Shown here in pieces: positions 4,712-53,010 of a stretch of 64,000 bases of DNA. The notes beneath the pieces were generated by a model. That model was not told where the DNA came from. It ran no database searches and was given only the letters and a program-made list of their open reading frames with translations. A program made the position numbers and the translations under genes. How positions within the stretch are numbered: position 1 is the first letter of the stretch; every line of letters starts with the position of its first letter. The stretch covers positions 1 through 64,000 of the forward strand of contig MQRK01196443.1 of assembly GCA_001938485.1 (NCBI GenBank), written 5' to 3'. Origin of the DNA: Girardia tigrina. Taxonomy: Eukaryota.

Positions 4712-7700
4712 TCAATAGGATATGTTTTCTATGAATTTATATTTTTCTAATTTATCCAAGGATAATCTTTCCACCGGATCGAATCTCATACAAGAATCGA
4801 GGAACAGTCTCAATTCCCCTGATGTATCTTTTGGTACTTCGAATTTAGGTTTTTTATTTATAATTTTTGCTGTAGTGGGATGTCTTCCTAAAGAAATACA
4901 TTATATTTCACTTTTTTATATAAAACTATACGAGTCAAGATATAAATCAGAACAGCTCCTAACGACCATACATCCGCTTTTTCATTTAACGAGCGTCTTT
5001 CTCTATCTTCCGGAGCAACGTACATCATCAAAGATTCACTCCATCTTTTATTTGTTGATGAATATTTATATAATGAAGGATTCAATAATTTTATATTTCG
5101 TTTTTCATCCAGAAAAATGTCATATGCTAAATTGATTTATATTTCATATAATCATAAAATTATTTCCTTACGGTTAAATTTGTGATAGTAAATATTGTAT
5201 TTATGAAGACATTTAAAACCCTCCATTATTTGTACTGTCCATTTAGGAATGTGTTCTTCAGTTTTATTTTTGATATTTTCTACAAACATAGGTAATGATT
5301 CCTGAATAATTGACTTAATTCGATAAATACTATATTTTTTTAATTTAAAAAAAATTTTAAAAATCAAATAATTAACTGAAACAAAAAATACATAAAGTTT
5401 ATAAAACTTAAAAAAGCTAAAAATGATTTTTTTAAACAAGAATGTGAGGAATATTTTAAATTGTGTGAATGTGTAACTGTATTGATGCGTATGTTGATTT
5501 AAGTATGTTGAATTTAGAATGGTGACTCTCCCACTCAGATGGAAATTGGTATTTTTTATTGAATGTATTATTTTTGAATGTATTATTTATTTTTGAATGT
5601 AATTTAAAATTTTAATATATTAATTTAATATGTTCTTTTTTTAAAAAATGTTTAGATTTAATTTTAACCAATTAGATACTTTATAATTAATAATTTTTAT
5701 TAACATATTTTCATTTATTGAAAATAATTAGTATGAACTCAGAAATATATTGATCAAGAGAGATATCAAATAGTGAATACGCTTTTGATATTAAACGCTG
5801 TAAAACTCATATTGATGTTGTTAATAAAGTTTAATATTTTTAGTAAAATTTAAATAAATGCATTTTTAATAATTGGATGACATTTTTATTATTTTGTGAT
5901 TTATTGAGAAATGGTAAAAATTATTATTTTTAATTAATATTTTTTAGAAGTTAAATATGTTAAAAATATGACTTAGAAAAATTGTTCGAATAATCATTAT
6001 TAAAAATAGAAATAAGAAAACCAATTAGAAGGATGACAAACGATGAAAGACTTTCTGAGAGTCATAATGACTTGAAATGTGGTTGTAATAAAAATTCAAA
6101 CGAGACTTGTCTAAACGTTCTCAATAAAGCAAAATTTAAATAAATATGTAAACAAAAAAATAAAAATCTAAACAGTTTAGATTAATTAAAATCCATATAT
6201 TTTAATAGGAAAATAATTAGTAAAAGTTTGAATATACGAATTTAAAAAATATTAAAAACAATAAATTGGGTAAAATTTATAATGTAGAACGAAATTATTT
6301 TAAAAGAACATAGAGTTCAAGTTAAGTATGTGAACAAAATTGTTTTGAAAATAAAACGATTTTGATAAATTAAATGTAAAATAATTTAAATATTTTTAAC
6401 AAAGGTAGAAAATGGCAGATGTTAATTTTAAAAAGTGAAATTTTAATAAATTTTAGCAATAGTAAAAAATTTAGTAAATAATTTTCGGCTGAATGATTAA
6501 ATTCACCAGAAGAAATTTGTTTACATTTATGTATTATTAATAACACCAATATGGGTTTTCACAACTTAATTTTCATTACAATTTCAATTGTCCTTTGAAC
6601 AATTCTCAGCAAAATTTTCATAATTTGACATCGTTCTAAATTGATAAATTTTTGTTAGTGTTTTTTAACAAACAATTATTCGAAGAAATTTTCATTATTT
6701 TCAGATTTTATTTTTAAAGTTCAAATTTTATAATTTTTGTGAGGAATATTTTGAATGGTTTTTATTGCGTGTTGTTTGGTATGTTGTTTTAGGATTGTGT
6801 TTCTCCCACCCAGATGGAAGATTGATATTTTAAATATTTTAAAACGTAGAGTTGTTTGATCAATTATTAAAAGTTAAATAATCACTTTAAAATTAAACTA
6901 ATATTTCATAAATGATATTTTAATAATAATTTCTTAAAATAAATAAAAATTATTTTAAATTTCAATTATAAATTATTTTTGTAATTATTAAATTATTAAA
7001 TTATTAATTATTAAATTGTATTTTAAATTTGTTTGAATAATAAGACGTTAAAGAATATTATTAAAGATTATCAATCAAGAACGATGACGAGCTACGCAAG
7101 TTTTACGGAGAATTGTTCTAATGGCGATTCAAATTGTGATAATAATAAATGCAAAGGAAACTCAATTAATGTTCTTAATAATTTTATTAATAATTTTATC
7201 TAAATGTTAATTTAATTTTAAAAATGATTTTATTTAAAAACAAAACATTTATTTAATTAATTTAAAACTTAGTTAAAAGTTATTTACTTTTATTTAAATT
7301 TTTAATATTAAAATATGAAACGATTTAACATTTTTAAAGTTTTTTAAATATCTTATGCTGTACTTTAAAATGCAAATTATGCTCGGATAATTCATCGTGA
7401 TCATCCAAAATATCAATTTTCCATTTGGGTGGGAGAAACACATTTCCAAATACTAAGCTCAACATACAAAATTCAACAAACCAATTTCAACATACCAAAT
7501 TTAAAATATTCCTCACATGTAAGGAATTTTTTTGTGTTAATTAATGAATTCTAATTCAAATCAAGCATTATCAAGATAATGTTAATTCTACTCACAAATA
7601 CATAATTTCATATCTAAAATATTTTCTTACTCCATCCATGTATTCCATTACTTCATAGAACAAGTTCTCATCTTTGTAAATGCCAAGTAAATGTATAAAC

Positions 7701-8926
7701 CGTTCACTTCTTCTCGTTATTTGTACAATCTTTAATTGATCAAGTAAAAATCGTTCTTTCAATAACTCTTCAATCGAAAATTTATATTTCAGTATTGAAA
7801 TAGTTTTCTTTGATGAATTAAATGTCCCTTTTTTCAAAAGAGCACCTGGACCTTCACTTATTTGAGAATTCTCAATTGCAATATCAATGAATCTATCATT
7901 TAAAGTCTTTAAAACCATAAATACGTTTTATTTAATAACCTCATCAAACAATAAAATGTTATTGAAGAACCTTCATCAAGATCGTATTCATAGATGCATT
8001 TATCATCTTCCAAAACTTTTTCATTCAGAAAAAAAATAAAACTCTCAGAATCCGCATTAAATTTGTTTGCGGCTTTTTGCTTCATCGACGAAATTTTATC
8101 AAAATTCGAATATTCGACGACCAAAGATTCATTCTCCTCGAATACCGATTTCAATACAAGTTTCCCGTGTTTCCTTTTATGTTATAGATTAAATATTTAA
8201 CATTTATTTATTTACCTTTGAACCACTTTGATCAAACTATTGTCAGAAAGGTTGTAACTTTTTATTGTTAAATCGTCCTGCAACTGCTTTTTATCATGAA
8301 AAATAATTAAATCCTTTATATCTGAAAATTTTAATATAATTGATTTAAGATCTTTAATTGTTTGATTCGTTTTCATTTGTATTAAATCGGGTAGCGAAGG
8401 TTCTCCATGTACGTTTATAACCACAATTTCGCTAAAAATAATGAAAAAATATAAAAAATTTATTGTAAAAAAAACTTTGGATTGATAGATTCAATTTTGC
8501 AATTAACAACCAAATTTTCTGATTGAACCAAGTCAAGTAAATATTTATTATCATCAAGAACCTCTCCGAGGTAAAAGAGCTTCATAACCTTGTAAGTGAA
8601 GGGTTTTGCTTGTGACCATCGATTACAAATTTGCCTTTTAATATTAACAATATTATCGTTATTTGCAACTCCAATCTCAATCAACTCATTTTCATCATCA
8701 ATTTGAAATTTTATTATTTTGCAATTTTTAACTTCTGCAAAGATATCAAAAATTAACACAAATAAAAATTCAAAATCTATTTCAAATATTTAATTTTACT
8801 TGGAATGAAATGTTCTTTGATCTTAAGATAAAGGTTAAAGATATGATTTAAAAAGAAGTTAGCGCCACTTAAAAACTTAAAAGATCTTAAGAAAGAACTA
8901 ACTGATTCAATAAGATGAATTATCAT
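4712..8926 (-). CDS. Triple ubiquitin-like-domain pseudokinase, 8 exons, 532 aa
   Basis: Exons 8926-8800, 8734-8476, 8431-8216, 8173-7940, 7892-7631, 5301-5172, 5126-4932, 4887-4712. All introns are GT-AG with compatible phases (1599 nt, no internal stop). Three UBL-like units (..KLFYLGEVLDDNKYL; LIIFHDKKQLQDDLTIKSYNL; FIFFLNEKVLEDDKCIYEYDL), then a kinase fold (EVMEYMDGESL, QIMEGFKCLH, YVAPE, KADVWSLG, CMRFDPVERLS) lacking the catalytic residues. Confidence 0.85.
5443..6126 (+). mobile_element. Solo LTR-like element, TGTGAGG family, copy E1 (inside intron 5 of the pseudokinase gene)
   Basis: Starts TGTGAGGAAT, has box CTCCCACTCAGATGG..TTGGTA, ends GTTCTCAATA; flanks AAGAA/AAGCA (5-bp TSD, 1 mismatch). 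Confidence 0.8.
6535..7517 (-). mobile_element. Solo LTR-like element, TGTGAGG family, copy E3, interrupted by E2
   Basis: Segments 7517-7181 and 6737-6535 are colinear with the uninterrupted copy at 37377-37908; flanks TGTAT/TGTAA. Confidence 0.8.
6738..7180 (+). mobile_element. Solo LTR-like element, TGTGAGG family, copy E2, nested in E3
   Basis: TGTGAGGAAT...CTCCCACCCAGATGGAAGATTGATA...GTTCTTAATA with a perfect ATTTT TSD (6733-6737, 7181-7185). Confidence 0.85.
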
Positions 8927-9296
8927 GTTGTCTGATTTTTAAAGGAAAACTGAAAGTGTTAGCGATAGCAAAGAATAATAAACAATTTTGCCCTGAACAT
9001 GACCGTTTTTCTTTTTCTCTTGTCCAGAGGTTGATTTCTGTCTCATGCAAGCCCATATGGGTGCACCCTTCTCAGAATAGTTGGGGTTAGAAAAAATTAA
9101 GTTCTTCTCGATTTACGAACACATCTTAATGTAATCTGTATCTACAGACATCTCAAATTTCGGATTGATATTCTGCAACCGATTGGATAAATCATACTGG
9201 GTATTGTTATTACCACTCGGTTTACGTGACATGTTATAAAAACTCGGAGATCCGACCTTTGAGAAGCTATCAAAGTCATGACTATGAGTATCGAAT

Positions 9297-9724
9297 AATA
9301 ATATTATTAATAAAATTAAATTTTTATAAAAACAACCACGTTTTTCAAGCATTACCAATGCACTAAAAAGAGGAAAATAATTTTTTTTCTAGACATGTGC
9401 GAAATTTTATACCTAACCAAAAACGTGGGGCGGATNNNNNNNNNNNNNNNNNNNNNNNNNNNNNNNNNNNNNNNNNNNNNNNNNNAAATTTTATACCTAA
9501 CCAAAAACGTGGGGCGGATTTCTGAATTACTGCTATTAGTAACTGCTATTTCCTTTTTACTGCTTTTTAGTAACAATCGATCATTTCTATGCCCCACGTT
9601 TTTGATTAGGTATAAAATTTCGCACATGTCTAGAAAAAAAATTATTCTCGTCTTTTTAGTGCATTGGTAATGCTTGAAAAACGTGGTTGTTTTTATAAAA
9701 AAATTTTTTTATTAATAATATTAT
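9297..9724. mobile_element. Foldback/MITE-like palindrome (~135-bp arms, ~70-bp spacer)
   Basis: AAAAACAACCACGTTTTTCAAGCATTACCAATGCACTAAAAAG...AAAACGTGGGGC is mirrored by its reverse complement; second copy at 24566-24978; contains an N-gap. Confidence 0.85.
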
Positions 9725-10092
9725 TTAACTATTTTTAGTTATCATTTAGGGATTCAAATCTTTCGATTGATTTCGATTAACAGAAATGATAATAAAACCA
9801 AAATAACAAAGTTTTATTTTAATAAAAGCAAGTTTTATTTCAAAATAATTTTTTTGTACGTATTAATTAATATTATTGATTTTTTTCATAAAGTTAAAAT
9901 TTTCATAAAGTTAAATTATAGCATATGCGGTTTATGTAGAGCCGTAAATGTTTTAAAATATTGTATTGTCATCGGAACCAAGCCTGTATAAAAAAATTCA
10001 GCTCAATTGAATGACTGAAAGTGGTCGAAAAATCAATCGCAAGATTTGTTCCAGACAGACAAGAAAGCAAGCTAATAAAAACGTGGTAAAAA
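9725..10092 (-). mobile_element. Non-autonomous repeat with CCACGTTTTT subterminal motif and (GTCT)n microsatellite (HINE/DINE-1-like), attached to the palindrome
   Basis: Inverted near-identical copy at 24028-24565; CAGACAGAC and AAAAACGTGGTAA at the outer end; family assignment is inference. Confidence 0.55.
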
Positions 10093-12300: not shown

Positions 12301-12954
12301 TGAATCAATCCGTCAACAGGATATCCTCAACTGTTTCTTTCAAAACTTAATAAAAACTGGAATAACTTATGTTGACTTTTAAAAATGGTCAACTAAAATA
12401 TTGAATTTTGCTCTACAAAGATGAGCTAGTGAGACGGCTGTGTACCGATAAAAATATTAGATAAACACTAAATCGATGGTTGTGGTGAATTAAAATTTAT
12501 TAAGGTTGAAAATAACTGTCAATTACTCATCATATTCGGTCATAAACATAGCACTTCGCTTAGCGTGGCCGCTGGTTAACGTGACCAAAGCAGGTTGTAT
12601 TAACAACATCAATATGAGTTTTACAACATTTATTAATATCACAAGCGCATTCACTATTTGACATCTCTCTTGATCAATATATTTCTGAGTTCAAACTAAT
12701 TATTTTCAATAAATGAANNNNNNNNNNNNNNNNNNNNNNNNNNNNNNNNNNNNNNNNNNNNNNNNNNNNNNNNNNNNNNNNNNNNNNNNAAAAAGAACAT
12801 ATTAAATTAATATATTAAAATTTTAAATTACATTAAAAAATAAATAATACATTCAAAAATTATTTTAAATCTTTTTACTTTAAAATTAAATTAAATTATT
12901 TTTAATTAGTGGACAGGAAGCCGTGTCTCCACGATTTTTTAGGAAGAGAGGTGG

Positions 12955-13430
12955 ACAGAAAACAGTAATAATCGCCTTTCATTTTTAAGAAGAACACTTT
13001 AGCTTCACCGCCATTTGAAGGGTCCAACAAGAACTCCTCGAGTAAGGCTATTATATCAGCGCAGACTTCTTTCAATTCTGTTTTTAATTTGACTTCGGTA
13101 GGTTTTAATCAATGGAAGTCGAGAAGGATCTTTTTGTTCGATGCTACTCATTATCCTCCACGTTGCTCTCCGACTTCCGATTACGTTTTTGTATGCTACG
13201 GATAATAAGTTACGCTCTTCCATGTTCAATTCGCCGGTCATTTTAGCGATATCTTTCATCGCATCAACCATTTTATCATATCTTTCAGTTTTTTCAGCTA
13301 ATTTAGCTCTATAAACTTTTGTTTCTTTTTCGATTAATTTAAATTTGATTTCAAGTTCATTTTCAATTGAATTTAAAAATCGACATTGAAAAAATTGACA
13401 ATTATGAAAAACTTTATTTGAAATTGACAT
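12955..13430 (-). pseudogene. Intronless, frameshifted, 3'-truncated 14-3-3 pseudogene with a foreign ~32-codon N-terminal extension
   Basis: [17 protein letters not shown]...[30 protein letters not shown]; frameshift in an A-run near 13083, then [13 protein letters not shown]...EAKVFFLKMKGDYY; homology stops near 12955. Confidence 0.9.
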
Positions 13431-14062: not shown

Positions 14063-14753
14063 GGTTGGATAGATATGGCTACTTTAACGGGCTTTGACTC
14101 TATAAAAATATTTGCATTACATGACCCCTGATCTTTTTTGAGATATTATAAAATATTCTATTAAATCAAATAAAGAAAAAAATTTTTTAATGATATATAT
14201 ATCTAAATATGTGAGCTAGAAAAAATAAATAGATTGACTCACTTGAATTACTTTCCATTTTTTCAACAATATAATTCAGTTTGTTATTAAATCTCCAATC
14301 TTAAAAAAATCAAAGATAAAATTATTAAATAAATGTAATAATTTTTATTTATTTTTGTTTTTATACCAAATTATAAACAAAGTTTTTTTAGAAAAAATCG
14401 TTTTATGATACCTAACGTAATTTATTTTTCCAAAAAACAGTTTCATCAGCAATTCACAAATTACAAATTTACAGCAAATATTTCACAATTCCCACTTTAC
14501 CATCACAATTCAACAAGCAAATTTTTACAGCGATGACGATAACAAACTCGTTCGAAAATTATCTCTCTTACACAAGAAATTCAAAATCGTCAATTATCAA
14601 AGCGAAAAAAACAATCACTGTCGAAATTTTGCCACATAAACATTTTTAGCATACAATGACGCGTTTCAACAAACGCATTTTTTATAATTTATTTTTATTT
14701 ATTTAATTTGTTTTTAATTTAATTATTTTTTTATTTTATATTATTATTTATTT

Positions 14754-15560: not shown

Positions 15561-16869
15561 TATCAAATATTTATTCAAATAATATTCAATTAATGCTCAA
15601 ACTAAATGCATATAAATATATATACATTTTGTTAAAAATTTATATCATTTTCATCTTTATTCCGAAAACAATAAAAATAAGAATTGAATAAGAATATAAT
15701 TTGCATTTATGGTGATTTTAATGAAATTATGCATTAAAATAATTTTATTAATTTACTCAATGTTTCGTCAAAGTCGTCCAATTTATCTTTTAATCTTTTA
15801 TCCAAAAGAGAATCTAAAAAAATAAATATAATTACAAAATTTTCAAATCTTATTATAAAAATGGAACCTTATTTTTCTTATTATTAACTATTTAATAATT
15901 ACACAAGAGGGACAGTACTTTTTGCGTTGGTTTATTTATTCAATCAATATGTCCTGTTTCTCTTCGTTACAACTTCGAATTTGGCAAATTGATTTTTTTA
16001 CCAACAAAGAACCCGACAGAAAAACCGCAACGGTGCGACAAATCAAACTTTTGTATTTTGTTCGGTAACATTAAACATAATTTTTTAAATTTTTTAAACC
16101 TTAATTATTGTGTTTAAACTAAAGTGCACTTTTTCAATTATTTAATTATTTTATTTTTAACTTTTTTTAAAGTTTTTTAATTTATTCATTTACTTATTTA
16201 ATTTTCTTAAATTTATTTAATTATTTAAAATTATTTAATGTTTACTTTACTTAATTATTTGATTTTTTATGTTATCTTTCCCAAACTGGCAAAATGTTTG
16301 GTCAATTATTTAACTTTTCGCTCCATATACATTATACAACATTGTTTATTATCTGTAATATACATACCGAATGCCCTTACTTTCAGTAGACATGATGATA
16401 AATATGTTGCTTTAATGGAGCAGTGGATAGAGATTCATGAGATCTTTTAAATAATTGAATATTGTCTATTGAAGCATATAGAATCGACAATGACAAAAAT
16501 ATTTCAAAAATATCGGTGTTCCAACAATTTGACCATCACCGTATTTTTTGGGCGAAACATAAATATTGTCTCATTTTTAAATAATTTTAAAGATGACGTT
16601 TTCGGACTAAACTAAACAAATTTTGGAGGTGAGAGGCTTAACATTATCAACTTTTGTATTACATATTTACAGGTGACACCCTTATAAATATATAATATGA
16701 TTATATTAAAAGGGTTTTTCAATGTGTGGTCCTTACATACTTAAAAACAAGATAAACCATCTCAAAGTTAAATATAATCAATTATAATTTACGGCGTCAT
16801 CTAAAAGTCCATTCCATATTTACATGTTTGTTCGATCTTTATTATTATAAATAAGCCAAGCCTTTTTTA

Positions 16870-17620: not shown

Positions 17621-19779
17621 TTATATATATATATATATCCATCTTGTATCTTTTACAGTATACAAATTATTTTGGATTACCTGTTGGGCCGGAAACAAAA
17701 TTATTAAAAATATAGTCTTTTGCTCATCACTGATTTCCTTCCAAAAGGAATTTAACCCTATAATTGTTCGCGATAGGTCTTATAACTTTTCCTATTTTTA
17801 TGTGTCTCCACTAGGCTGGGAAATGGTTATGATCTCTGTTCAATATCATAACATAATCCTGCTTCAGTTGTTTAATGAGTGGTTTCCCTTTACATTTCAA
17901 AACCTCTATCATCTATTTCATATAATGTCAGTGTTCTTTACTACTTAGTTTCTATTTATGGCGTGTATAAGAAAAAGTATAGGAAATATTAATAGTACAC
18001 ATTAAGGAAACGAAATTTAATGGAAGATGGTTTGTAAATAATACCATCACATAACATAAATTCAAAGAAATATGAACTGTAAATGACTTTTCAAGACATC
18101 ATCGATCAAGTAAAGAGAAAGAAGGTAAAGCAACAATTAAACTTACAATAACAAGTGATGATAATGTACAGATCAGTGTAATAAGATTAGTTTTAAAACC
18201 AAAGGCGAACAACAATGTTAAAGGCACAAATGGAAGTAAAGTAATCCAAAATAACATTAAGAATGCTTGAAGATGCTGAAAGACAAGAAAGTGTTTTGCT
18301 GAAAAGATAACATTTATGTATAATAAGTGTTCGTGTGTTAAAATGTGTTTTGTTTATTTTCAATAATTGTATAAAATTGTTCATTAAAGTAAAATACTTA
18401 CTCAAATTCATTTCAAGTGTTTCGAGTCTTTTTTCTATTTCACGGTCTGAAAATAAAATACAATCATCACAGTTTCTTTGTGAAAAGAAAGTGAAAAAAA
18501 ATAATTCAAAATATTTTTTTTCAGAGGAGGAAAACTTTGAACAAGAGGTATTTGTGTCAAGAAGTCTTTTAAAGAGCAATGCTTTGGTATGACACCATCT
18601 GGCACATGTACAAAGTTTCTTACAGTAATAACAATAAATATATCATATCAATTTATTTCTATAACAGAAAATGAGGACAATAGCAAATAAGTTCAATGTG
18701 AGTTATAATGCTACAGGAATTCAGATGTACCTCAGTAATTGTATGAACTATCTCCCAAAGGCCAAGTAAACGTACACCTTACCTCCCTTCATACTAAACA
18801 ATATATTATATGAATTCTCGTTTTTTTTTAATTTACAATTCCTCCGTGTGATCTGATAAAAGGAATTAACTTAAGGTATTAATTTTATGACAACCTTTAT
18901 CGGAAATCAGATACCAAAATGATGATGGGAGTAAACAGGACCGGAAGACAGAGATTGCCTCTGATAGTTGTTGGTGTTACTGCATTGTTCAGTTAGAAAT
19001 TACATAAAACAATTACATTAATATATTTAACAACCTTTTCTGCTCCGAACGAAGTATTCATCCATCCTTTTAAACTCTAAATTATAATAAACATTATCGA
19101 AATCATTATGTCAGAATAATTAAATTTAATCCATTGATAATAATAATATTTACTTAATATTAAATGTGACGTATATAAAAATTATAAAATTAAATCTTTT
19201 TAAAATTTCGCTATTTGTGTTATCGTTGAATGTTATTTGGAGAAAAATATATTTTATATGAAATACGTCCATCGATGTACCAATAACGATTCTATCGATA
19301 GTTGAAGTTTTATATATGTTAGGAATTAAAAATGCTATGAAAAATTTTGAAAGAAGGTTATATTAAATATGTACAAATCAAAACTTTTATACAATTAAAT
19401 ATGTAACGTTTGAAAAAATAAAATTACTAAAATTAAGAAGATCAATTAAATTGCTAATCATACAAATTTTTTTGAGAGTTTTTAATATAATATAAAAAGT
19501 AAAATGTATAATTTTTCTGTGGAACGATTTTAAAAAAATTAATAAAATTAAATGAAACGATTAAATATTTTAAAATGGTATCGTAATTTAAAATTGATTT
19601 ATAAAAGTAATGAAAAAATCAAATATGAATATTTATAAGTATTTTTATTTATATCGGTTTAAGATTTATAAAACAAATTGTTTCTCAAAAAAAATAATAA
19701 GTTTGTTTAAATATTAGATTTAAACATATGTTTTGGTGTGGTATAATAAAAGTTTTGATATCAGAAATATCTCATAGTA

Positions 19780-20545
19780 ATAATTCCGACAATGTCCCAA
19801 GAACATCTAATAATATATTTGGACTTTTGTTTATGAACTTAAAAGTATCAATTATAAGGTAAATTAAACCTCTAATCATGGATCGTTTATTACACTTCGT
19901 CTTCATCTTTTCTTCAAAAATTTATTAAGGAAACAGTGGATAAAATGCTTTTAAAAAATAATTCGAAAATCATAGTTTTACTTCTCCTGATGAATCTACG
20001 AAAGGAATTGAATTATCATTAGATAATAATTATATACCTAAATAATGCTTAATTGAACGTTATTCTGAAGAATTTATTAACTTAAAAAAATATATTATTA
20101 AAAACAACTAATAATGAAAAAAATTTGTATCATGATCATAAAATTCAAAATATGTTCAGTAATAAATCTATTACTCATTTGTCACTTTATTCTAATATTT
20201 TTTATGAATATAAATTTATGAGTAAATATAATGAGTAAATGTATTGGAGAGACTGGTCGTCAACTCTGTTAACAAATACAGGAAAATGGTCGAAAAGAGT
20301 AAATAAGATATTAATATTGATAAGTTCAAGATTATGTGTAAGCATTTTGATAGTAATTGGAAGAAAGTGTGACGCGAAGGATTGTTAATTAGGTCACGTT
20401 ACCCTTAAATCAATGTTCAATCGGCAGTCTCAACCAGAGTGATTTCATGCAATCATCATTTTTGTATTTATTCACAGATGAATTAATTATTAATCAGTGA
20501 CTTGAAGATGGAAATTGATACGTTGAAATATATTGTCTCTAAAGA
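19780..20545 (+). mobile_element. Decayed Penelope-like element (RT remnant, GIY-YIG, degenerate hammerhead)
   Basis: CIGETGRQL..QIQE at ~20240 (cf. YIGETxRxLxxRIxEH); GAC TTGAAGATG...GAAATATATTGTC at ~20499-20537. Confidence 0.5.
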
Positions 20546-22734: not shown

Positions 22735-24027
22735 CTCATCCCTTTACAGTATTAAGCCTGAGGCTTTTTAGGAGGCCTGGTACGCTGATGGTTCTCAACG
22801 AGCACTCCCCCAATGTTGGGATCCATGCCTTTGTTCCGCCTGTCTGAAGATGCAACGACGTCATTACGACACCCTTCACCGGGATTGATTCATACCAGAT
22901 CATTAAGATACAATCCAACTATCGACAGCGGGGTCACTACTCCCCACAGCCTTCACACCCAGATTGTAAAGCTTAGCCTAGTGAATGGATTGCTGGCCCA
23001 TTCCTGAATACGATCTATTACCGGCTGTTCCGCAATAATCGGCTAGCTCTTGGACACTTTAGCCTAGAGACCGAGATCTCTAGTTACTCAGGGATACTAC
23101 GTAGAAGTATGCCCACTGGCCGCAAAGTTCATCCCTGCTCTCCAATGTAAAAGGTTTCACACTTTTGACATTTATATTGGTAAACCAAAAGGGTATGAAA
23201 GCAAATTTTGGACCACATAGTGAAATGTCATGGAACTCAGAAAATGGCAATTTATCTTCCAAAAAATATTTTGATTGTCCAATTAAACTGATTTTCGGTA
23301 GACTCACCTTTAATAGATTCACCGCTTTATAGTGTGGAAGGTCATTTCAAAACACTGATCAAATGCTCATATTTCTGTTAGGTACACTAATGGATTTGTG
23401 AACCACATTATATCTGAATGACCACATCCACTTTGGTTCGAGCATCAACAGTACCAGTATGGTAATGGCTAAAAATGCGGTGACCCTCATACTTGGTACA
23501 TAAACAATAATCAGAGAAAAACATGAAAGGATATTTGTGTTATCAACAACTGTAATGTGATGATATTCTAACTCAATAGAGGAATAAATGTATGAATTCT
23601 GACAATGATAAACAAAAAATACGGGGTGAAATCAGCCGCCAGTGACTGATGGATGGAGCTCAAATATATTTCCCAAAAATTTCTACCTAATAATATATTT
23701 CCAAAAATAAATTATGAATTAATAATCTTCCATGGAATAAATATGATTTTATTCAAATCTCACGAAATTCCTTTTTTATATGTTTTGTAAAATTAAAATA
23801 TTTATCTCAGAATTGATGAAAAACAAAATATTAATTTTTGTATTTACCTTTACGACATTTCCCAAAAACACATTTTGCTAAAATATGAAACAAAAAATAA
23901 ATATAAATTTAAAATGTCAAATATTAACTTAAATATTACAATTTTATAGGACAAATTGTTTAAATTAATTTAACTAATATATTTGATTTACATTAGAAAT
24001 CTTTACAATCTTCTTTAGATCCCTTTT

Positions 24028-26108: not shown

Positions 26109-27164
26109 ATAAATTGCTGGTCAAAATTTTAAGACCAAACAATCATTAAAAGACTCATCTGCTATCTGTTTTCCAAACCAAAGATTGTAAAGTCAACCAT
26201 TAACTATGTTAACATGATCCTCTGCTTCCTTCCTGTACCTTTTTTGTTCCCAGTTTTTTTAAATACATATGGCTTGATATTTTCGGTCCAGTATGGTACA
26301 TAGCCTCAAGTACAGTTCAATAATAAAAGATTAATTATAAAATAATTCAATGTCATATCCTGATTTTAAGAAATTAAAACTTACTTATCAATTTAAACCG
26401 TATTTCTATAATCAAAATCGAAGGAAGAGCGATAAGCAAAATGATTAAAATCGTTTTTATTTCAATCAAATTAGCTTCTAAAAGAAAACAAATTAATATA
26501 AAAATAAATTTAAAATAAAATACAAAAATCAAAAATAAATTTGTAAAATATTATTTGGAGAATGAAGATAATTTTGTGTCTTCACTGTGAAATACGTCAT
26601 AAAGTTGTGTAGAGTATTCAAGTATTTTTATATTCACGCAATATTACACTTTCAGTTGCGTCAATGCCCCCTGAATCTTCCAACATAGGATTATGAATAA
26701 TTTTGCTTTCGAACATTTTTTAAATAATAAATTACATGCTAAAATTGTAAATATCTAAACAAAACAATTTATTATTATGGGAGTACCGTATTTTCACTTA
26801 TAGACCCATAGTCTAATGTCCAATTTGATCAACCCTTGTGGGCTATTAAAGTTGGCTACATATTTTGAAAATATTTTACGCAACAGTGACTTGCAGATTA
26901 AGTGAAGGGTGACCCAGCAGTCTGGCTATAAAAAAACATAAATAAAATAACCATAGTTTTTCATTTCAGATGCTTGTCTTCGTTTTTAGAGCTGCGTTAT
27001 TATAAACTAGATTTGCATGAAAATTGAATAAAATACCAGTTTTAAAATAAGAAAACATTTATTTAGAAAACATGTTGATATCATAAACACATTCAAATCT
27101 GAATAACGGTTTTTGTTACCAAAATTAAGATACAATTAATTTTTCATTAAATTTCAAGTTCATG

Positions 27165-29109: not shown

Positions 29110-32100
29110 ATGTAAACAGCCATACGGTATAAATGGATGAATCCATATTAAATACAACGTTAATTGATTATAATGATGTGATCGGTTAGGATTAATGGCA
29201 AAATATACTCTGGCGTCGAAGGTTATATGCATGACCGGTTTATCATCGTGAAAATATGGAATTTCTACTATTTCAATTTCGACTGTTTAATATAAATATT
29301 GAAAGATATATTGAATCAAAGTAATTATAAAACAAGTTTTAAGAATTAAAAGATGAGATTATAGACACTACTTATAGATATTACGACTCCTTCTAGAGAA
29401 TTTCAATTTCCAAACGTTAGAAATAACAAATTTGAGGTCAGAATTACGTGGCATGTGGCTTCAATCAAGGATTTTCTGTATGAATCTTAGTACTTATTCT
29501 GATATCTATCTAGCATCTGTTTTTATTTCAACCATATCCCCTATTTGAAGATGTTTTCGCATTATTTCAATGTTCTTGGTTCGTTTCTCTCTATTTTTTT
29601 ACAAAAACGTATTACTTATCTTCAGAACTTTTATTTTATATTATTTTTTGTGCCAACATAACTTGATACATATTTTTTACTAACTTTACAAAGACAAAAT
29701 GTTAACAAAATTAAAATAAATCATTTGTCAGCATTTCAAAATTTGAACTTCAATGTCTTACAAAATGTTTTAGGTTTATTATTGTAATGAATTTTCGCAT
29801 GATATTTATGATAATTATAAAAATTATTACCAAATTTTTTTGAGAGTTCATCGAGTCTCTCTTGAAGTTTTTCTGAAAATTAAAGATTTATTAGTGTTTA
29901 TTCAAATTTTATTTCTTTTTAAATAAATAATCAGATGGTATATAAAATTATAAACGAAGAGTAATAAAATCCTAAGGATGTACCGAACCGAACCTTTAAA
30001 TTATATAACCGGCTTCTCAGTTTATTTTTAATATTATATCCTGTAGAATTTTATATTTTATGCAACAAAAATACAAAATCTGCTGTAATTTTTCGATAAT
30101 TATAACATTGAAGTAATGAGTAAAAAATCTAATTAAAACTTTTAAGAATTGTTTAATCAAAATATATATACATTAAACCATTTGGAAAAAGTACAATACG
30201 TCTTTATAAAACATTTTAAAAAATTATATAAACTAATAAAATATAAATAAAATACTTTTTCTAAAAAACAAAACATTTATATTGTCATTTATTCTGCTTT
30301 AGAAAACTATAGAGACAACAAAGATTAATTGAATTTTCCTGGACGGAATTACATAGCAGTCCCACGTGAAAAGAGATTCTGGATCCAAAACTGAGACGGC
30401 TTTCCGATTAAACGCGTTCAGGTAGACAAATGACCGAGAAGTTAAGAATAGCATTGCGTTGTATCTTAGTGCGATTCAAAAAGGTACTTTAAGGTATTCA
30501 TTCTCAAACTATTCATTTTGCACAACTTTCTTGTGAAAAACTGTATTTTGGTCGTTTGAGGTTCCAAAAGGACACGTTAAGACAGGGCTTTTCAAATAAG
30601 CAATCAGTAATGGTTTATTTAGTCACACATTTACCAGTCTATACCCCATGATCTGAAATACAATAATTCTGTTTAAAAAGTTCTTCATAACAAAGAAATA
30701 ACCAAACAATAACTACAATAAATAAGAAATATAATTCTTTTCATTATTATAATTATAATTATTAATCATAATTGTTGGGTATTTGAATTAAAACTCGGTT
30801 TTATCCTTGTTTATATTAAATTTCTAATCTGACTCCTAAACGACCAAAAAGTTTCTTCCAACAATAATATATGAAGAATGAGCACAAATCATTTTAATAT
30901 ACTTTATTTGTAAATGATAACTTGAGCACAATTTTAAATCGAAACTTTAACAATAAATCAATATTTTGAAGCACACTCAACCAGCACAATCCAATATCAA
31001 TTTAGAACGAGCAATATCTGAAATTTATGATTAAATTCTTCTCCTTTACAGGATACTAGATTTGTTAAGTAAACTAAAATTAAATAAAGAAAGATTACCG
31101 TAAATCATAATCAAGGTTAAAGATTTAATGGGATCCGTAAGTATAATTTTTGTCCGTAATTATTGTTGTGAATATGACTGAAATAATTATTGTTTATATA
31201 CTAGTTTTTAAATAACCTTGAAAATTAATTTACTAAAACAATTCTAAAAATATTTACAAATATTCTTCAAATTTTATTAAAATAACTATTATAATAATCA
31301 AAAAAATTATTAATTTTAATCATAGTATTAATTTTTATTTTCTATTAGATTTTAAAATTTTAATTTATATTTTTCGGAACCCTGACATAATTAAAAAGGA
31401 ATCCAACAATTTATTTATCATTTATCCGTTTCGCGGATGTGTGAAGTCCATATACACAGTCAAAGGGATAGCTACCCATGACTGGTCGTTTCTCACTGGA
31501 TTGCAAAGCGTGCGATGAAGCAAAATGCTGATATCCCTGTAAGAGGTCTAGCTGGGACTTATAGACTTATTTGGTTTGGTTGACCATCTAAAGATAATAT
31601 ATGCTCTTTCTGAAAAGAGATGGGAGGGTCATTATTATGTCTATAAATCAAAATAAATTTTTATATAAAACCTAAACATTGTTTTTATTAAAGATGATGA
31701 ATTTTACTTACATACTTCCTAAATAATCAATAAGGATGTAATAAAGCCGAATCTAAGACCCGGATCCATCAGGATTTATATTTTCTGTACAAAGCTTTAT
31801 CGGAATCCAACTGTATTTGTAAATCACTTGATAAAATATTATTCATTCTGAAATTTTAAGCATTTTTTAAAAACAAAAAAGTATTCGGTTTTTTTTGTGA
31901 GCCAGCTATCTATTATTTACGTTAAAGTGAAATGTTTACGAAATGATTTTGAAGTGAAAATGCTGAAATTATTTTGAAATTTGTGTCTTTTCTGAAAGTT
32001 TGCAAAAAATATACCATTCGTAAGTAGAACACTTAAAATAGTGATATGTAGATACTATCATATCAAAGTTTTTTTTTGAAAGAGAATCATTCTTTTATGG

Positions 32101-33719
32101 AAAGAGCCATACATTTCTTATTTTACGATTTATAAATAAAGGTATGTTAGAGCAGAAAATGATTGAGTTGGATTGACCGAACATTGACCGACAAAGAAAA
32201 ATTTAAAATAAATAAAAAAATAATTACAAATGAAAAATTAAATATATTAAAAATAAAGAATTGTTTAAATTAAAATTAAAAGTTAATATAATAAATGAAA
32301 TTAAAATTTTTTAATAAATTTTATAAATTAATTTATAACTAATAATCTAATTAAGATGTGACGTGCTAAGAAATAGTTAATGATCGATCATCATCATGTT
32401 CTCAGCCTTCTGTCTATTCCACCTGATCCCCAACCTGGGGACCCCATGTTGCCCCGAAGACCGGATGGTGGTTGCAGAGGTGTGCAGTCGAAATACTGTA
32501 CTGGGCTAATTTTATTTTAAGTTCATTTTTAGACTTCATCTTTGAAATCAGTAAACTGATTTTTGTCCCCAGAATTATTATCTCTCTCAATCAAATATTC
32601 AAAGAATAAATTCATTTTCAAATTCAAAATAAAGTATTCATCTTTATCACAAAAATTTTATAGTTATGTACAGAATGAAACTCTCTTTACCGTCATAAAA
32701 TCTCACTCTCAATTACAATCGACAAACTTCAGAATCGAATAAATCGTTTTCTATATTACAATCGGAAAAATAAGCTCAAATAAATTGGCAACTCAAAAAA
32801 AATTTTAAATCATAAATTTTCAGAACAGAAAATTGTAAATCTGGTAAATTCAAAAAAATCGGATTAATTGTGAGGAAAATAAAATTCACTTGAGCCAATA
32901 ACTTGCTCTAGTGTGAATATTGGTCTGATTGATTTACATGAAAATTCGTATCAAAATAAAAAATTAAAGAGAAAATTCAACTACTGATTATATGAGTTTT
33001 CGGCAAAAGAAAAAATACATCTGTTCAATTAAATGGAGAAATAAAGTATTAAAGTATTCTCTTAAAAGAGAAGCTATAATTTTAGAACGAAACACAAATT
33101 GGAAAAGAAAAATTATATTTTAAAAAGGAAATCGGAGTCCAAAAATGGAGAATCTAAAGTTTTGAACGAGATAGTACAATTTAAAAAATTTGAAAAAGCG
33201 ACCGAAAGAGATTCTGAGCAAAAAATAATAAAAAGGACAATGTCGGAATCTGAAAGCCGAAAAAATCGATGTTCCAATCCATTTATACCGAAAAATATAA
33301 TCATTATTTAATTTAATTTATTCGCACCTGTTGGGTGAAATTATAATTAAGTGATTCGCAGCGAAACCAAATGTCATTGAGGATTGAAATATGTGATTTT
33401 AATTAATAATAATTACCAAAGTTTACATTTTAAATAAATAAAGTTTGTTAATTCTTACTTGTAATATATGCATTTTCAGAACCTTGCATTTGTACAAGTG
33501 CTAAATTATAATAAATCTTTATAAAAACTATTCGAAAAAGCTAAATATAGAAAGTAAAACTAATTACAGCAAAAATATAAATGATAAATGAATACAACTT
33601 TGTAAATTTGTTTCATTTAAATATTTCTTTTGTCTATACTAAATTTAGTGTGCTAAATTCGATGGATAAATTATTTTTTTTCGAGGCTTTTGGTCCGTAA
33701 AACGACTACCATTTTTAAT

Positions 33720-34874: not shown

Positions 34875-35829
34875 TGTTGTGATTTCGAATAATTATAAAA
34901 AAACTCCAAAAGCGAGTTACTAAATTTTAATAAAATAGAAAATTTTCTATATTTGTTAATCTGCTTATATAAACAAACAATTGTTTAATTTTTGATAATT
35001 GTTTTTTATAATAATATATATATTTTGATAGGCATTTTCTAAAAATGCCTACAGTTTTTAACAGTAATTATTAAAAAATATTTTTAGATTTTTCAATAAC
35101 TCGTATTAATTCTGTAAGCAAATTCTTGATATAAGCAATAAAAAGCTTAATGAAAAATTTTAAATGTTTGGAAAATTATGAAAACAGTACAGTCTTCTAA
35201 AAAAATGTTATTTTTAGTTTTGGTGACGCCGATTGGAAACAAAAATACAGAGTCAAATAAACGCCAATTGGTGTATAATCGGATGGGCCTGTTATCTTTG
35301 ATATTATGTATAAATTTTTGATCATCATGACTTCGAATTCTGAATCAAATATTTGAAGACAACTGAAACACAACTAACAATATAAAATATATTTTATTGA
35401 AATTATGTTTTTCAGTTTCTTTTTTTAATCTTTTTATAATTTTTTTTATCTTTTAGACATTATTTGTCTTTATAAATAGATAATTAATTATTGATAATTA
35501 AAATAACTTTTCATTAATACTTAAGTAGAACGACGAAAATAACCTGACAACGTTTTGATGTTTGCATTCAAAAGTTTCATTTCATCTGAACATGTTTATT
35601 CAAATTAAAAACGAATATTTCGCGAAACTTAAATATAAATATTAGAAACTATTTTTGTCAATAATAAAAATATTTTAATATTATAAATAAATTATATTTA
35701 AATAAAAGTTTTAGCATATACCATCTGTCTCAATTAGTAAGAAAATAAAATCATTTTTAAATAAAATAATCAGTAATTCTTTATTATTTTTTTAATGAAA
35801 TTTGATAAATAATTTGATAAATATTTATT

Positions 35830-38449: not shown

Positions 38450-39599
38450 CCAGGACAAATATGTTCCTAAGTACCTAGAAAACACGATATTTTTTGTTCC
38501 TTGTTAGATGAACCGATATTAAGTAAATCAAAATATTAAATAACAAAGGTTACATTTCAAATATCATTTTTATAAACTTGTAATAAATTATTTCAAGTGA
38601 CAGATACAATTTTTATTGCGTAAAATCTGCAATGTATTTATACTCATTTTATAAATTATTCTGCAAACAAGATTGAGCAATGCTTAAATAAAATCATCAC
38701 ATTAAATAATATTATCATTTTATCGTATGCTTCTATTTACACAATGAACTTCACTTACTTTCATACGATTGTTTTGGTTTTGCAAATGAGCACAGTCAAG
38801 TTTTAATACGCAAAATAACTTTCAGCACATATTTATATATACAAATTTTAATGCTTATATAATTTTCGATCAGAAGAATAATGTCAATGCGAATTTACCT
38901 TTCATTCTCGCAATGTCAATAAACACTGAATGAAGAAGTTAAAAAAATTTGCTTTTAATCAATTAAAATATACTCGAAACACTGTAATTAGATGGAGGAC
39001 ATTCTGCAAAGAAGATTGTACAAAGATGAACTTCATGTAAAGACCTTACGTTGGCAGGCACTTTTGAAATTGTCACATTCGAGATCTCCTGAATGAAGAA
39101 TCATAAAATATATTAAGGATAAACATTTATGATTATATTTATCGAATACAAATAACAATTTTAATTAATTATAACATTCGTCACCTGCAAGTGGCAAACG
39201 TCTTGTTATGTCCATTACCTTCTTATAACAATTTAGAAACCTCACTGTCTCAACATCTCTAACCTCTTTAAATTTGAAATATAAATTTATTTTCTTGATA
39301 AAAGGGTACAATTTTCGATACTGATTTAATGAAATTTAAAGAAAACTGTTTCAAAAAAGAAATTATTGATAACAATAACAAAATAAAAAATGAACAACGA
39401 AAGATTTTCTACACAAAATTATGATAGAAAACAACAAACCCTTTTTGACGCACATCTCATTGAAATTGGCGCAATAGTTTTCTTTTGTCTTGAACGGTCG
39501 CTCGTTTGGACAAATCGTCAAGGGCATCTCTCCACAGCATCGCTGTAGACACCAGTAACATATGACAATCACTATCATAAACATCTTAATGCATCTCAT
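38450..39599 (-). pseudogene. Secreted Cys-rich protein, TNF-receptor-like ectodomain; 3' part apparently disrupted
   Basis: Signal-peptide-like start. Exons 39599-39440, 39265-39185, 39088-39050, 39003-38974, 38925-38899 are joined by phase-1 GT-AG introns: ...ICPNERPFKTKENYCANFNEMCVKKE...NCY...GDLECDNFKSACQQCPPSNYS. Downstream Cys-rich bits contain stops and end at an LTR. Confidence 0.5.
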
Positions 39600-47810: not shown

Positions 47811-49109
47811 TTACAGATTTCTTTTGACAACGCAGCGTAAAAACATTTTGTTGTTTTGTGAAAATGTCGGATGATTCGACAATTCCAACAAACTGATAAA
47901 GTTTGGATACCCGATTCCTTCATTTCTCTCCCTTTGGGGTCTATTCCAATTCCTATTGTTTGGTGAATTTACGAATTTCTTTGTTTTTGTAATACAGTTT
48001 CCATCTGGATTCTGATTTATGAGGGATAACGTTACATCCTGATTGAATGGCCAAGACAAAATATCATCATAAGGACCTTGCATCAAGCAAAAATAAAACG
48101 ACATATGCGTATCTTCGGCGAATTTGTTGCCACAAAGATACAATTGTAAACACATTTTATATCCGTTTTTGTGAGAATAAAAAGGTTCACTTAATAAAGC
48201 AATATCGTCTCCTAATTCAGCTTGTTGTTTTTTCTCGGAATAATTGTCGATACGCCAAACAAACTCTTCTTCGGATGCTTTTTCTAGCTTTAATTTCAAA
48301 TCTTCTATCATATTCTCTAAATTCACTATTACATCACTCTGAAATCATTTTAAAATGGGAAAAAAGTTAATTTAATGTTTACCTGGTCATCGGAAAATTC
48401 GCTGCTGTCATCTGTGTAATTTGATATTGAGATATTTTCGCTATTTGACTGTGACAATTGGACTACCTTAAAAGATTAATCAATTAATAGGTAAAGTTTA
48501 AGTAATTTGACTAACCTCATTTTCCTTTTCAACTGAAGCTTTATTTTTTAAAGTTTGATTTTCTATTTTCAGTTCAACAATTTCCAACTTTAACAACTCC
48601 ATTTCATTTGTCAAATTGTCCATTGATTGTAGCAACATTTTGGAATGGGAAACTATTTCGTCAAGTATATGACGTGGTACTGTATCATTTGGTATGTCAA
48701 CTTCCTTACAGCCCACTTGCACATATGGACAATTAACAGGCATAGAATCGCATATTTTTATATGGTTTTCAATGTTTTGTAACTGATCTCTGAATGTGCA
48801 ACTCGGATTAATACATTTAACAACAATTTTAGATATCTTTTTATTGATAGCTTGATCAATTTTTATATTTTGGCTAAAGCTTATTCTTTCTTCTTTACAG
48901 TCTTCCATGATTCCTGGACAAAACTTTTCTTCGTCATTTAAATATGTTGTGATACAATCAAAGCAATATCGACATCCACAAGCGCCACTGTGAGCATTGA
49001 TCAATAAATGATTGCAAATTACACAAATATAATCATGATTGATATCATCGACTTGAAACTGATAAATTTTCATCATTCTCCAAATGTCGTTTAACTTTTC
49101 ATTAGCCAT
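47811..49109 (-). CDS. TNF receptor-associated factor (TRAF)-like E3 ligase/adaptor, 3 exons, 401 aa
   Basis: Exons 49109-48516, 48466-48383, 48338-47811 (phase-0 GT-AG introns of 49 and 44 nt). RING (CVIC...CGCRYCFDC...CP), TRAF zinc fingers, coiled coil, MATH domain (FVWRI, SEPFYSHKNGYKMCL, GPYDDILSWPF, GYPNFI). Confidence 0.93.
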
Positions 49110-49299
49110 TTCAAAAACTAAATTTAAAGGTCATTGTATAATGAAATATTTGATTTGAAATTAAAATTTTAAATGACACAAACAACAATTTGTTTTTTGA
49201 CGAATAATGATGCTTAAAATAAAAATAGATTAACATTAAAATATTTTACCTTTTATATTAAAAAAATAATAAATTATTCTGGCGAGATGAAAATTTAAA

Positions 49300-51300: not shown

Positions 51301-52309
51301 TAAACACGTATAAAACTTTCGAATGACATTTTTTAAAATGGTATTCTTATAAAATCAGAGGTTAAACTTTATGCCCTATTTTTATACTTCAATACACTGT
51401 AAATATGTAATTGATTCTCTATGTTTTGGTTGATTTTCTAATCTTAACGACGTACAGTCATATTGGACAAGCTTATTTTACTGTTTGATTTACCCCGTTG
51501 GGTGGAATAAAATAGATCCGTAAACAAAATTGACACCATATCTCATTTGATTAATAACTCTTGTAACCCAAACATGTCTAGCAGATATATTTGTATTAAT
51601 AATTTTGATATCAGAGTGTCGAGAATTTCGTTTTCCAAACCATGGACATTCGAGCAGACAAAGATAACGATGATTCTCTTACATGGCTAGTATATCTGAT
51701 ACAGGAAGTTTCAGTCTAACGTTTCCCATATTGGAAAAACCTCAAAATCTTCAATCAACGCTAGAAATAAACACGATGCTGGTTAGGAAGGTGCATGTTT
51801 TGCTAATTCTATTCAGTTTATTGATAGTGTAAGTTTCCCTTTAATTTGAATTTGGCAAAATAATAATTTCTGACGTTTGTGCTGATGAGACTGTTTGCTG
51901 GACATATTTTATCTTTTTCCATTAGTAGTAAAGATACTTCGGCTTTTAGTTTTGTATGCTATATTTTTCTGTAGGTCAAATACGCAATTTTATGGTTTAG
52001 GAGTTATAAATGATAAAAATAGTTGACGTAAACACGCTTTAAACTGTGTTTGGATGGATTGTGACGATCGCGTCGTTTCATTGTTCGATTTTCATTGTAC
52101 ATTTAAATGAAGTGTATATTTATTGTGAAATAAAAAAAGATCAAAAAATAAAACGATATAGGGTTAAAAATTACTATATAGTTATACAATATCAACAATT
52201 TTATTTTTAATTCTTGTAAAATAATTTTTGAGTAATAAAAAACAGAAAAATGTTCTAGAAATATAATTATTTGTGGATTTTCGTTATTGTGTGTGAATTA
52301 ATTTACTTA

Positions 52310-53010
52310 AATGGATCAAGTCGGTTCGAGACGATGAAACACTTTTTGGCAACCTGTAGCTTCGGACAAGTTTGTTGCCCGATTCACTTCGAATCTCAAG
52401 ACAAACCGCATGTAGTCAAGTTGCTAATCGAGTCCGGTTACGTTATCGATTCTGTTGACTTTAAAAAGAAAACGGCTCTCCATTACGCAGCGATGTCCGG
52501 GAACAGGGAGATCTACGAGCTATTGATCAAGAACAACTCGCATTTGAATTTCGTAAATCAATCGAGATGGACAGCGCTGATCAAAGTGGTCTATTGGAGC
52601 AATTGTTTGTCTCGAGTGTCTGCTGAATCACAATTACGTTCTGTCTATGCAGAATAATGACGGCCGGACGGCCATTCATTAATTGTGTCGATAAAAGTTT
52701 TTGGATGATGAGTTACTGTTGAAATAGTTTTTATTACTGATTGACTGTGTGGCTCGAGCATCTACGACAAGAGCCACGATAAAAATCATTGGGATTCAGA
52801 GGCCGATTTTATTCCGCTGATGTTCGCCACGTATCATGGTTATTCGAAACTTGTTGAATGTCTGATAGATTCCGATTGTACATCGCTATCAGATTGGACG
52901 AACTTTTCGAATTCGACGATTTCAATGAGTAGATTACTGGTGATAAAGTATTAACCCCATGAGATACTAGCTCTGGAGCGCCACATCTGTTCTTCGCCAG
53001 CTCATGTACG
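52310..53010 (+). pseudogene. Ankyrin-repeat pseudogene (apparently intronless, frameshifted)
   Basis: VVKLLIESG, TALHYAAMSGNREIYELLI, WTALIKVV, then in shifted frames NNDGRTAIH and IPLMFATYHGYSKLVECLID. Confidence 0.75.

Follow-up and report, generated by a model that had tools for sequence, protein, structure and literature searches.

A Girardia tigrina ubiquitin-like-domain pseudokinase gene with a predicted cysteine-bearing, membrane-spanning upstream half

The first 64,000 nucleotides (nt) of Girardia tigrina contig MQRK01196443.1 (assembly GCA_001938485.1), the whole stretch analysed here and referred to as the window, carry on their minus strand a gene encoding three ubiquitin-like (UBL) domains and a pseudokinase, with a predicted upstream half that would make its product a single-pass receptor. 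The initial annotation proposed an intact gene of eight exons and 532 codons between positions 4712 and 8926; this model was recomputed identically, with GT-AG introns of phases 1, 2, 2, 2, 0, 1, and 1, and exons 2–8 stand, whilst exon 1 does not. Transcript evidence was drawn from contigs of four public runs (including X1, X5, and X8), the RNA nature of which is guessed, no run being recorded as RNA. Intron 2 (junction 8476/8431) is skipped by contigs of X1 and X5, intron 3 (8216/8173) is partly skipped by an X8 contig, and intron 4 (7940/7892) is skipped by an X5 contig (397 nt, 0 mismatches), with the last of these giving a direct view of the proposed joining of the UBL exons, through UBL3, to the kinase exons. 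The join from exon 5 to exon 6 is supported by the loose end of a contig, with the last two junctions (exon 6/7 and exon 7/8) based on the same positions and phases in paralogues. The exons of this part of the gene, together with the discarded exon 1, are:

14243–14299, minus strand: 57-nt exon spliced to UBL1 (donor in an RNA-like X5 contig, 22-nt loose end)
8800–8926, minus strand: exon 1 of the earlier model, most likely intron (contig evidence)
8476–8734, minus strand: UBL1 exon (model, domain search, spliced contigs, predicted fold and Foldseek)
8216–8431, minus strand: UBL2 exon (model, domain search, spliced contigs)
7940–8173, minus strand: UBL3 exon (model, domain search, spliced contigs)
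7631–7892, minus strand: pseudokinase N-lobe exon (model, column alignment, spliced contigs)
5172–5301, minus strand: pseudokinase alphaD–alphaE and degenerate catalytic loop (model, Pfam, spliced contigs)
4932–5126, minus strand: pseudokinase activation segment (NPS for DFG), APE, and alphaF (Pfam; junctions from conserved intron positions)
4712–4887, minus strand: last exon, alphaG to stop (Pfam; conserved intron positions)

The claimed exon 1 at 8926–8800 is joined by no contig. An X5 contig instead departs at 8734, its next 22 letters matching the window solely from 14243 upward, where a GT donor lies. In unspliced contigs from two further organisms, one nucleotide is inserted at 8829, within the claimed exon, and an X1 contig extends 796 nt upstream of 8734 in sequence that is not placed on 8735–8960. 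Because of the missing contig join, the splice to 14243, the insertion, and the X1 extension, 8926–8800 is most likely intronic, and the gene extends beyond the limits first drawn. An alternative split of the claimed exon 1 and a longer UBL3 exon were both ruled out by spliced contigs.

In Pfam the UBL exons match ubiquitin and not PB1, with UBL2 and UBL3 scoring above the ubiquitin cut-off and UBL1 above that of Rad60-SLD_2. The earlier reading of three UBL domains is borne out by a predicted beta-grasp fold for UBL1, with a predicted local distance difference test (pLDDT) score of 88 and a Foldseek match to ubiquitin at a template modelling score of about 0.8. As also noted initially, the domains have no C-terminal di-Gly, consistent with type 2, non-conjugated beta-grasp domains. 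Their placement at the N-terminus of a soluble protein is not sustained, with UBL1 being an internal exon in the focal gene and a phase-1 acceptor preceding UBL1 in paralogues with readable upstream sequence.

Exons 6–8 match the kinase fold in Pfam, and column alignment confirms the catalytic losses described in the initial annotation, with the beta3 Lys replaced by Leu, the alphaC Glu by Gln, the catalytic Asp by Lys, and DFG by NPS; the focal kinase is without all three of the beta3 Lys, catalytic Asp, and DFG Asp. A Lys stands one position after the beta3 Lys column, and retention of the beta3 Lys in the focal gene was considered and dropped after column alignments placed Leu in that column. 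Of 45 family rows, none has the DFG Asp, 11 retain the beta3 Lys, and 25 retain the catalytic Asp; L076 and L065 each retain the Lys, the Glu, and the catalytic Asp. Four fragment alignments of faulty or doubtful register did not enter the analysis. The C-lobe columns P-E and W-S-x-G and one Cys are invariant (43 of 43), whereas the ATP site is lost. The absence of the DFG Asp throughout the family, together with near relatives that are all unnamed proteins, backs the earlier proposal of a lineage-specific and probably non-catalytic scaffold. P0002, a spliced relative, matches Pkinase with an E value of 6e-45, its best PDB sequence matches being STE kinases and not members of the tyrosine kinase (TK) group; the predicted fold of P0002 is poor (pLDDT 52), and therefore no claim is made on a pocket or on domain packing.

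Upstream of UBL1, models of splicing and codon use, trained on 222 introns of the family, predict a chain of symmetric phase-1 micro-exons extending to 39584, the 12 predicted exons together supplying 649 nt of coding sequence ahead of UBL1. Each of the 12 upstream introns is in phase 1 with a good splice score, and strong phase-1 micro-exons number 10 on the gene strand vs 4, 0, and 1 on three control strands. A candidate exon at 33500–33459 was excluded from the model. In addition to the 57-nt exon at 14243–14299, the chain comprises:

39440–39584, minus strand: predicted exon 1, ATG, signal-peptide-like stretch, and first three Cys (81 genome matches at E<=10, 53 at E<=0.01)
39050–39088, minus strand: predicted exon 2, 39 nt, phase 1-1, Cys 4–5 (kept in paralogues)
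38974–39003, minus strand: predicted exon 3, 30 nt, Cys 6 (kept in paralogues)
38899–38925, minus strand: predicted exon 4, 27 nt, start of the stalk (kept in paralogues)
35544–35585, minus strand: predicted stalk micro-exon, 42 nt (splice and codon score only)
29831–29872, minus strand: predicted stalk micro-exon, 42 nt, resembling the cytoplasmic helical exons (0 of 97 control exons as high)
26385–26477, minus strand: predicted transmembrane exon, 93 nt, ending in EIRFKL (hydropathy peak 2.6; end motif conserved in paralogues)
23848–23877, minus strand: predicted juxtamembrane Cys-bearing exon, 30 nt, weakest of the chain (resembles the exon following the transmembrane exon in C233167)
19870–19911, minus strand: predicted basic juxtamembrane exon, 42 nt (basic exons at the equivalent place in linked paralogues)
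18402–18446, minus strand: predicted cytoplasmic helical exon, 45 nt (splice and codon models, helical-exon comparison)
15757–15813, minus strand: predicted cytoplasmic helical exon, 57 nt (splice and codon models, helical-exon comparison)

The joined model forms a single open frame of 706 residues with a hydrophobic start, six Cys, and one membrane-length hydrophobic peak at residues 112–136. The product is likely a single-pass receptor, its predicted parts being, in order, a signal peptide, six-Cys domain (62 residues when spliced), helical stalk, transmembrane helix, cytoplasmic helix, three UBLs, and kinase. Queries of the Cys region (exon 1 and two-exon read-throughs) matched no entry of Pfam, the PDB sequences, or the ESM Atlas, the TNFR Cys-rich domain included, and no family member turned up when metagenomes were scanned with the Cys exon. 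In the genome, the transmembrane exon retrieved only itself and a strict transmembrane pattern gave one match, with a six-frame search for conserved upstream exons returning almost exclusively transposons. In C218527, tandem stalk exons of 48–54 nt lie 10–13 kb past the Cys exon, and stalk length therefore differs among paralogues.

Whether this upstream chain and the UBL-kinase exons belong to one transcript was weighed mainly against the rival of two neighbouring genes, in which a small Cys-transmembrane receptor is co-inherited in clusters with a UBL-pseudokinase that is soluble and begins with a short helical segment, perhaps as a receptor and cytoplasmic kinase pair. One of the 12 upstream junctions, the last (14243/8734), is present in RNA-like contigs, and the 796 nt that the X1 contig carries upstream of 8734 are of a size compatible with the 649 predicted coding nt. 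In six of 41 contigs scanned, a UBL-kinase is preceded at 14–45 kb by a same-strand Cys domain, with a transmembrane exon between the two in five of the six (the focal contig, C239698, and C218689 by scan; C241051 and the divergent C232408 by eye) and a weak one in the sixth, C191147. Nine Cys-exon matches fall on eight other UBL1 contigs, compared with about 0.07 expected from a hand sum over contig sizes. A held-out transmembrane profile scores 27–28 upstream of UBL1 in two of 21 intervals, the best antisense score being 9.7, and each of the eight strong transmembrane matches, four of which had served for training, has a Cys domain upstream of it or a UBL-kinase downstream, with the next-best score at 21. 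One predicted extracellular stalk exon is similar to two of the cytoplasmic helical exons. The UBL-kinase join is also seen in L010 and L051, where UBL3 and the N-lobe share one exon, and in one intronless locus.

Several observations weigh against the 706-residue receptor. Eleven of the 12 upstream junctions lie outside the RNA-like contigs, and the 796-nt contig part is matched by size, not by letters. Nine UBL-kinase loci are without a Cys or transmembrane exon across the 15–57 kb of upstream sequence searched, and 17 Cys contigs are without a downstream UBL-kinase in the fetched sequence, most of them too short to cover the 14–45 kb over which linked genes extend. About 45 kb separate the first Cys gene of C226870 from the start of another, with no UBL-kinase in that interval. 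Furthermore, identities of the Cys domain and of the UBLs rank the six linked genes differently, no database protein unites both halves in what were weak searches, and the two helical regions failed a shuffle test of hydrophobic moment (277 and 61 of 1000 shuffles, not significant), which tells against reading them as a coiled coil. The nine loci and the C226870 Cys gene are equally points in favour of two genes, as are an in-frame ATG at 14258 and the excess of Cys exons over UBL1 exons (81 vs 53, at differing thresholds). Against two genes, the exon at 14299–14243 has a good acceptor and an open frame, and the 796 nt upstream of UBL1 would need to be largely untranslated. Additionally, no stop exon is required between the transmembrane exon and UBL1, and the order of transmembrane exon, 30-nt exon, basic or helical exons, and UBL1 recurs in C239698, C250932, and C218689. 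Two neighbouring genes are the main rival, to which we assign a low probability, with the focal micro-exons and UBL-kinase probably forming a single transcript; some paralogues may be partial copies or without one half. In G000:C239698:1486-22828, two near-identical Cys-transmembrane 5′ halves lie head to head.

The UBL1 exon has 53 matches in the genome, and the family set comprised 60 fetched loci and the focal gene, with 32 extending from UBL1 to the end of the kinase; L029 has an unreliable model, and a number of the loci probably represent haplotype copies. Six introns occupy a common place and phase across the family. The ratio of nonsynonymous to synonymous substitution rates (dN/dS) by the NG86 method is 0.10–0.97 for the UBLs (13 independent pairs) and 0.24–0.85 for the kinase (12 pairs), mostly 0.1–0.6. 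Amongst the six linked genes the Cys domain is 37–63% identical compared with 27–35% for the kinase, with a Cys-domain dN/dS of 0.19 over 10 pairs at saturated dS. This apparently conserved ectodomain lends no support to an arms race in that part of the protein. Among 1.84 billion representative proteins 20 scored, the family-like ones being unnamed and the others polyubiquitin-like or Rad23-like, with two of the unnamed matches being spliced UBL-kinase proteins without the same Asp. Neither the N-lobe, the UBL1 profile, nor the Cys exon retrieved a family member in word-indexed protein searches, and the ESM Atlas returned generic kinases for P0002. No description of this architecture was found in the literature, with subscription journals and supplements outside coverage, and planarian transcriptome tables may carry these genes under automatic names. 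The focal gene is a real, apparently expressed member of a large lineage-specific family of dozens of genes. A second UBL-pseudokinase of its clade, L064 (G000:C196443:63346-65960, minus strand), lies just beyond the end of the window, and an intronless copy (L191:1015-2450) with three UBL-like units, a kinase, and one stop is likely a retrocopy of a divergent member.

The same data bear on a pathogen decoy, in which pathogen proteases or deubiquitinases would cleave or bind UBLs that mimic polyubiquitin or ISG15, the attack being reported by the pseudokinase, membrane-bound or not. The tandem UBLs do resemble linear di-ubiquitin and ISG15 (Foldseek, low-confidence model), and family turnover is rapid, with dN/dS near 1 in some pairs (YN00 values of at least 1 in five of 21); against this, di-Gly linkers are absent, the column equivalent to Ile44 is a Lys in the family profile of UBL1, none of the 25 NG86 values reaches 1, and the ectodomain is conserved, rendering the decoy improbable. 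Decay of MAP3K duplicates without a function of their own, which the stops or frameshifts of some copies (three of 32 complete models; L056, L061, and L072 among the partial ones) might suggest, appears largely refuted by frame retention in 29 of the 32 complete models, whose kinases are about 30% identical, and is further opposed by the spliced contigs, the mostly low dN/dS, and the loss of the same Asp in spliced relatives from other sources, leaving it very improbable.

Catalytically intact kinases in the same genome, located by a search with one spliced unnamed relative, share four intron positions with the pseudokinases (phases 2, 0, 1, and 1), and their exons have MAP3K2 and MAP3K5 as best matches, some being preceded by weak beta-grasp-like exons. 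A quick tree of 59 kinase domains places 43 pseudokinases on one side of the midpoint root (SH-aLRT 94), with the Cys-linked members scattered through that side, a spread in keeping with the two halves forming one gene; alone, this midpoint-rooted tree names no parent. The pseudokinase likely descends from STE11 MAP3Ks resembling MEKK2 or ASK1, as judged from kinase matches and shared introns, which point away from the initial comparison with IKK and TBK1. Six PB1 matches were found in the genome, none on family contigs. Expanded active STE11-type kinases were also observed in L196, L200, L205, L209, and L220, with L205 reading kinase, linker, beta-grasp-like exon, and second kinase in tandem, and related kinases with HRN and EFG replacing HRD and DFG in L202, L206–L208, L218, and L219, of which L206 has two beta-grasp-like exons ahead of its kinase.

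On balance we favour a receptor pseudokinase restricted to this lineage that would act as a scaffold for a MAP3K pathway, passing on its signal through clustering and docking with predicted partners in place of phosphorylation. A conserved, probably endogenous ligand would bind the Cys domain, a shared ligand of this kind being favoured over diverse pathogen recognition because the ectodomain is conserved. The helices would fix the oligomer state, the receptor clustering upon ligand binding, and the UBL triplet may recruit partners as PB1 does in MEKK2/3. The C-lobe of the dead kinase might then dimerise with active MEKK-like paralogues or present a MAP2K to them, tuning a MAPK stress or tissue-turnover pathway, possibly via TRAF adaptors. 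According to PMC12780230, human MEKK2 dimerises and recruits MKK6 via its alphaG surface and MEK5 via PB1. A TRAF gene (RING, zinc finger, and MATH) lies at 47814–49130 on the minus strand, 8 kb upstream and between the focal gene and the second family member; C129606 has an almost identical TRAF exon flanked by family copies, and L065 holds a MATH remnant. This proximity is a lead only for possible TRAF coupling.

MEKK2 and MEKK3 (MAP3K2/3) resemble the focal protein in placing a beta-grasp domain N-terminal to a STE11-type kinase, and the active relatives found here, which match MAP3K2 and MAP3K5, share four introns with the pseudokinases; however, the focal protein has three ubiquitin-type domains instead of one PB1, has lost its catalytic residues, and likely spans the membrane with an ectodomain. 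PTK7, RYK, ROR, HER3, and EphA10/B6 are single-pass receptors whose catalytically dead kinases act by docking, but belong to the TK group, carry Ig, WIF, Frizzled, L-domain, or ephrin-binding ectodomains, and are not known to carry UBLs. The single-Cys-rich-domain TNF receptors BCMA, Fn14, and Grindelwald have short six-Cys ectodomains and a single pass, the focal gene having a TRAF neighbour, yet their Cys spacing differs, they are not known to have a kinase domain, and the focal Cys queries lack a Pfam or PDB match. Schistosome micro-exon genes, including meg-8.3, also follow a signal peptide with symmetric micro-exons, but encode short secreted proteins that are not known to carry a UBL-kinase tail. 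In IKK and TBK1, an active, soluble kinase of a different group precedes a single ubiquitin-like domain, the reverse of the focal order; kinase, UBL, and a long helical region nevertheless occur in one chain in both systems (for planarian TBK1, see PMC13563047). Trypanosoma brucei RDK1, as portrayed in the accessible text of PMC3894213, is a STE11-like kinase with predicted N-terminal membrane helices; in contrast to the focal protein it has two or three such helices, belongs to an unrelated lineage, and is there neither called a pseudokinase nor reported to have a UBL or Cys ectodomain.

The known animal receptor kinases stem from the tyrosine-kinase, TGF-beta-receptor, guanylyl-cyclase, and IRE1/PERK groups, and STE11-derived receptor pseudokinases would, if true, be a separate invention. 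We tentatively suggest that planarians may independently have invented such a class by fusing a new six-Cys ectodomain and transmembrane helix to a UBL-bearing MAP3K, the kinase then being killed and the gene multiplied into dozens of receptors; these might be the missing upstream receptors of the expanded TRAF and MEKK-like families, as dead-receptor and live-kinase pairs. Planarians have well over 100 TRAF/MATH transcripts (available text of PMC7586133) and employ TAK1/MKK/p38 signalling in infection and regeneration (available text of PMC4993586), with no TNF-type receptor named upstream in these portions of either source. The family supplies receptor candidates testable by RNA interference, and the spread of a micro-exon 5′ half across 14–45 kb makes such genes prone to mis-annotation.

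The initial annotation counted three long terminal repeat (LTR) insertions in intron 5. At least three related dispersed-repeat copies in mixed orientation, putatively LTRs, are indeed present:

5439–7515, no strand assigned: dispersed repeats in the long kinase intron (about 5439–6130, 6531–7180, and 7179–7515; repeat comparison)

This repeat has matches in 49 of 240 loci, with a copy following an integrase frame in L064 and two oppositely oriented copies flanking pol in L093; the repeat ends are not clear-cut. Elsewhere in the window, a frameshifted 14-3-3 fragment (12950–13330, minus strand; Pfam E value 5e-25), likely a retro-fragment, lies inside the 14243–8734 intron, and an ankyrin-repeat exon lies at 52259–52654 on the plus strand. 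Just upstream of UBL1, an inverted repeat pair of 135 nt, 95% complementary, spans 9297–9725, with similar letters present in L022.

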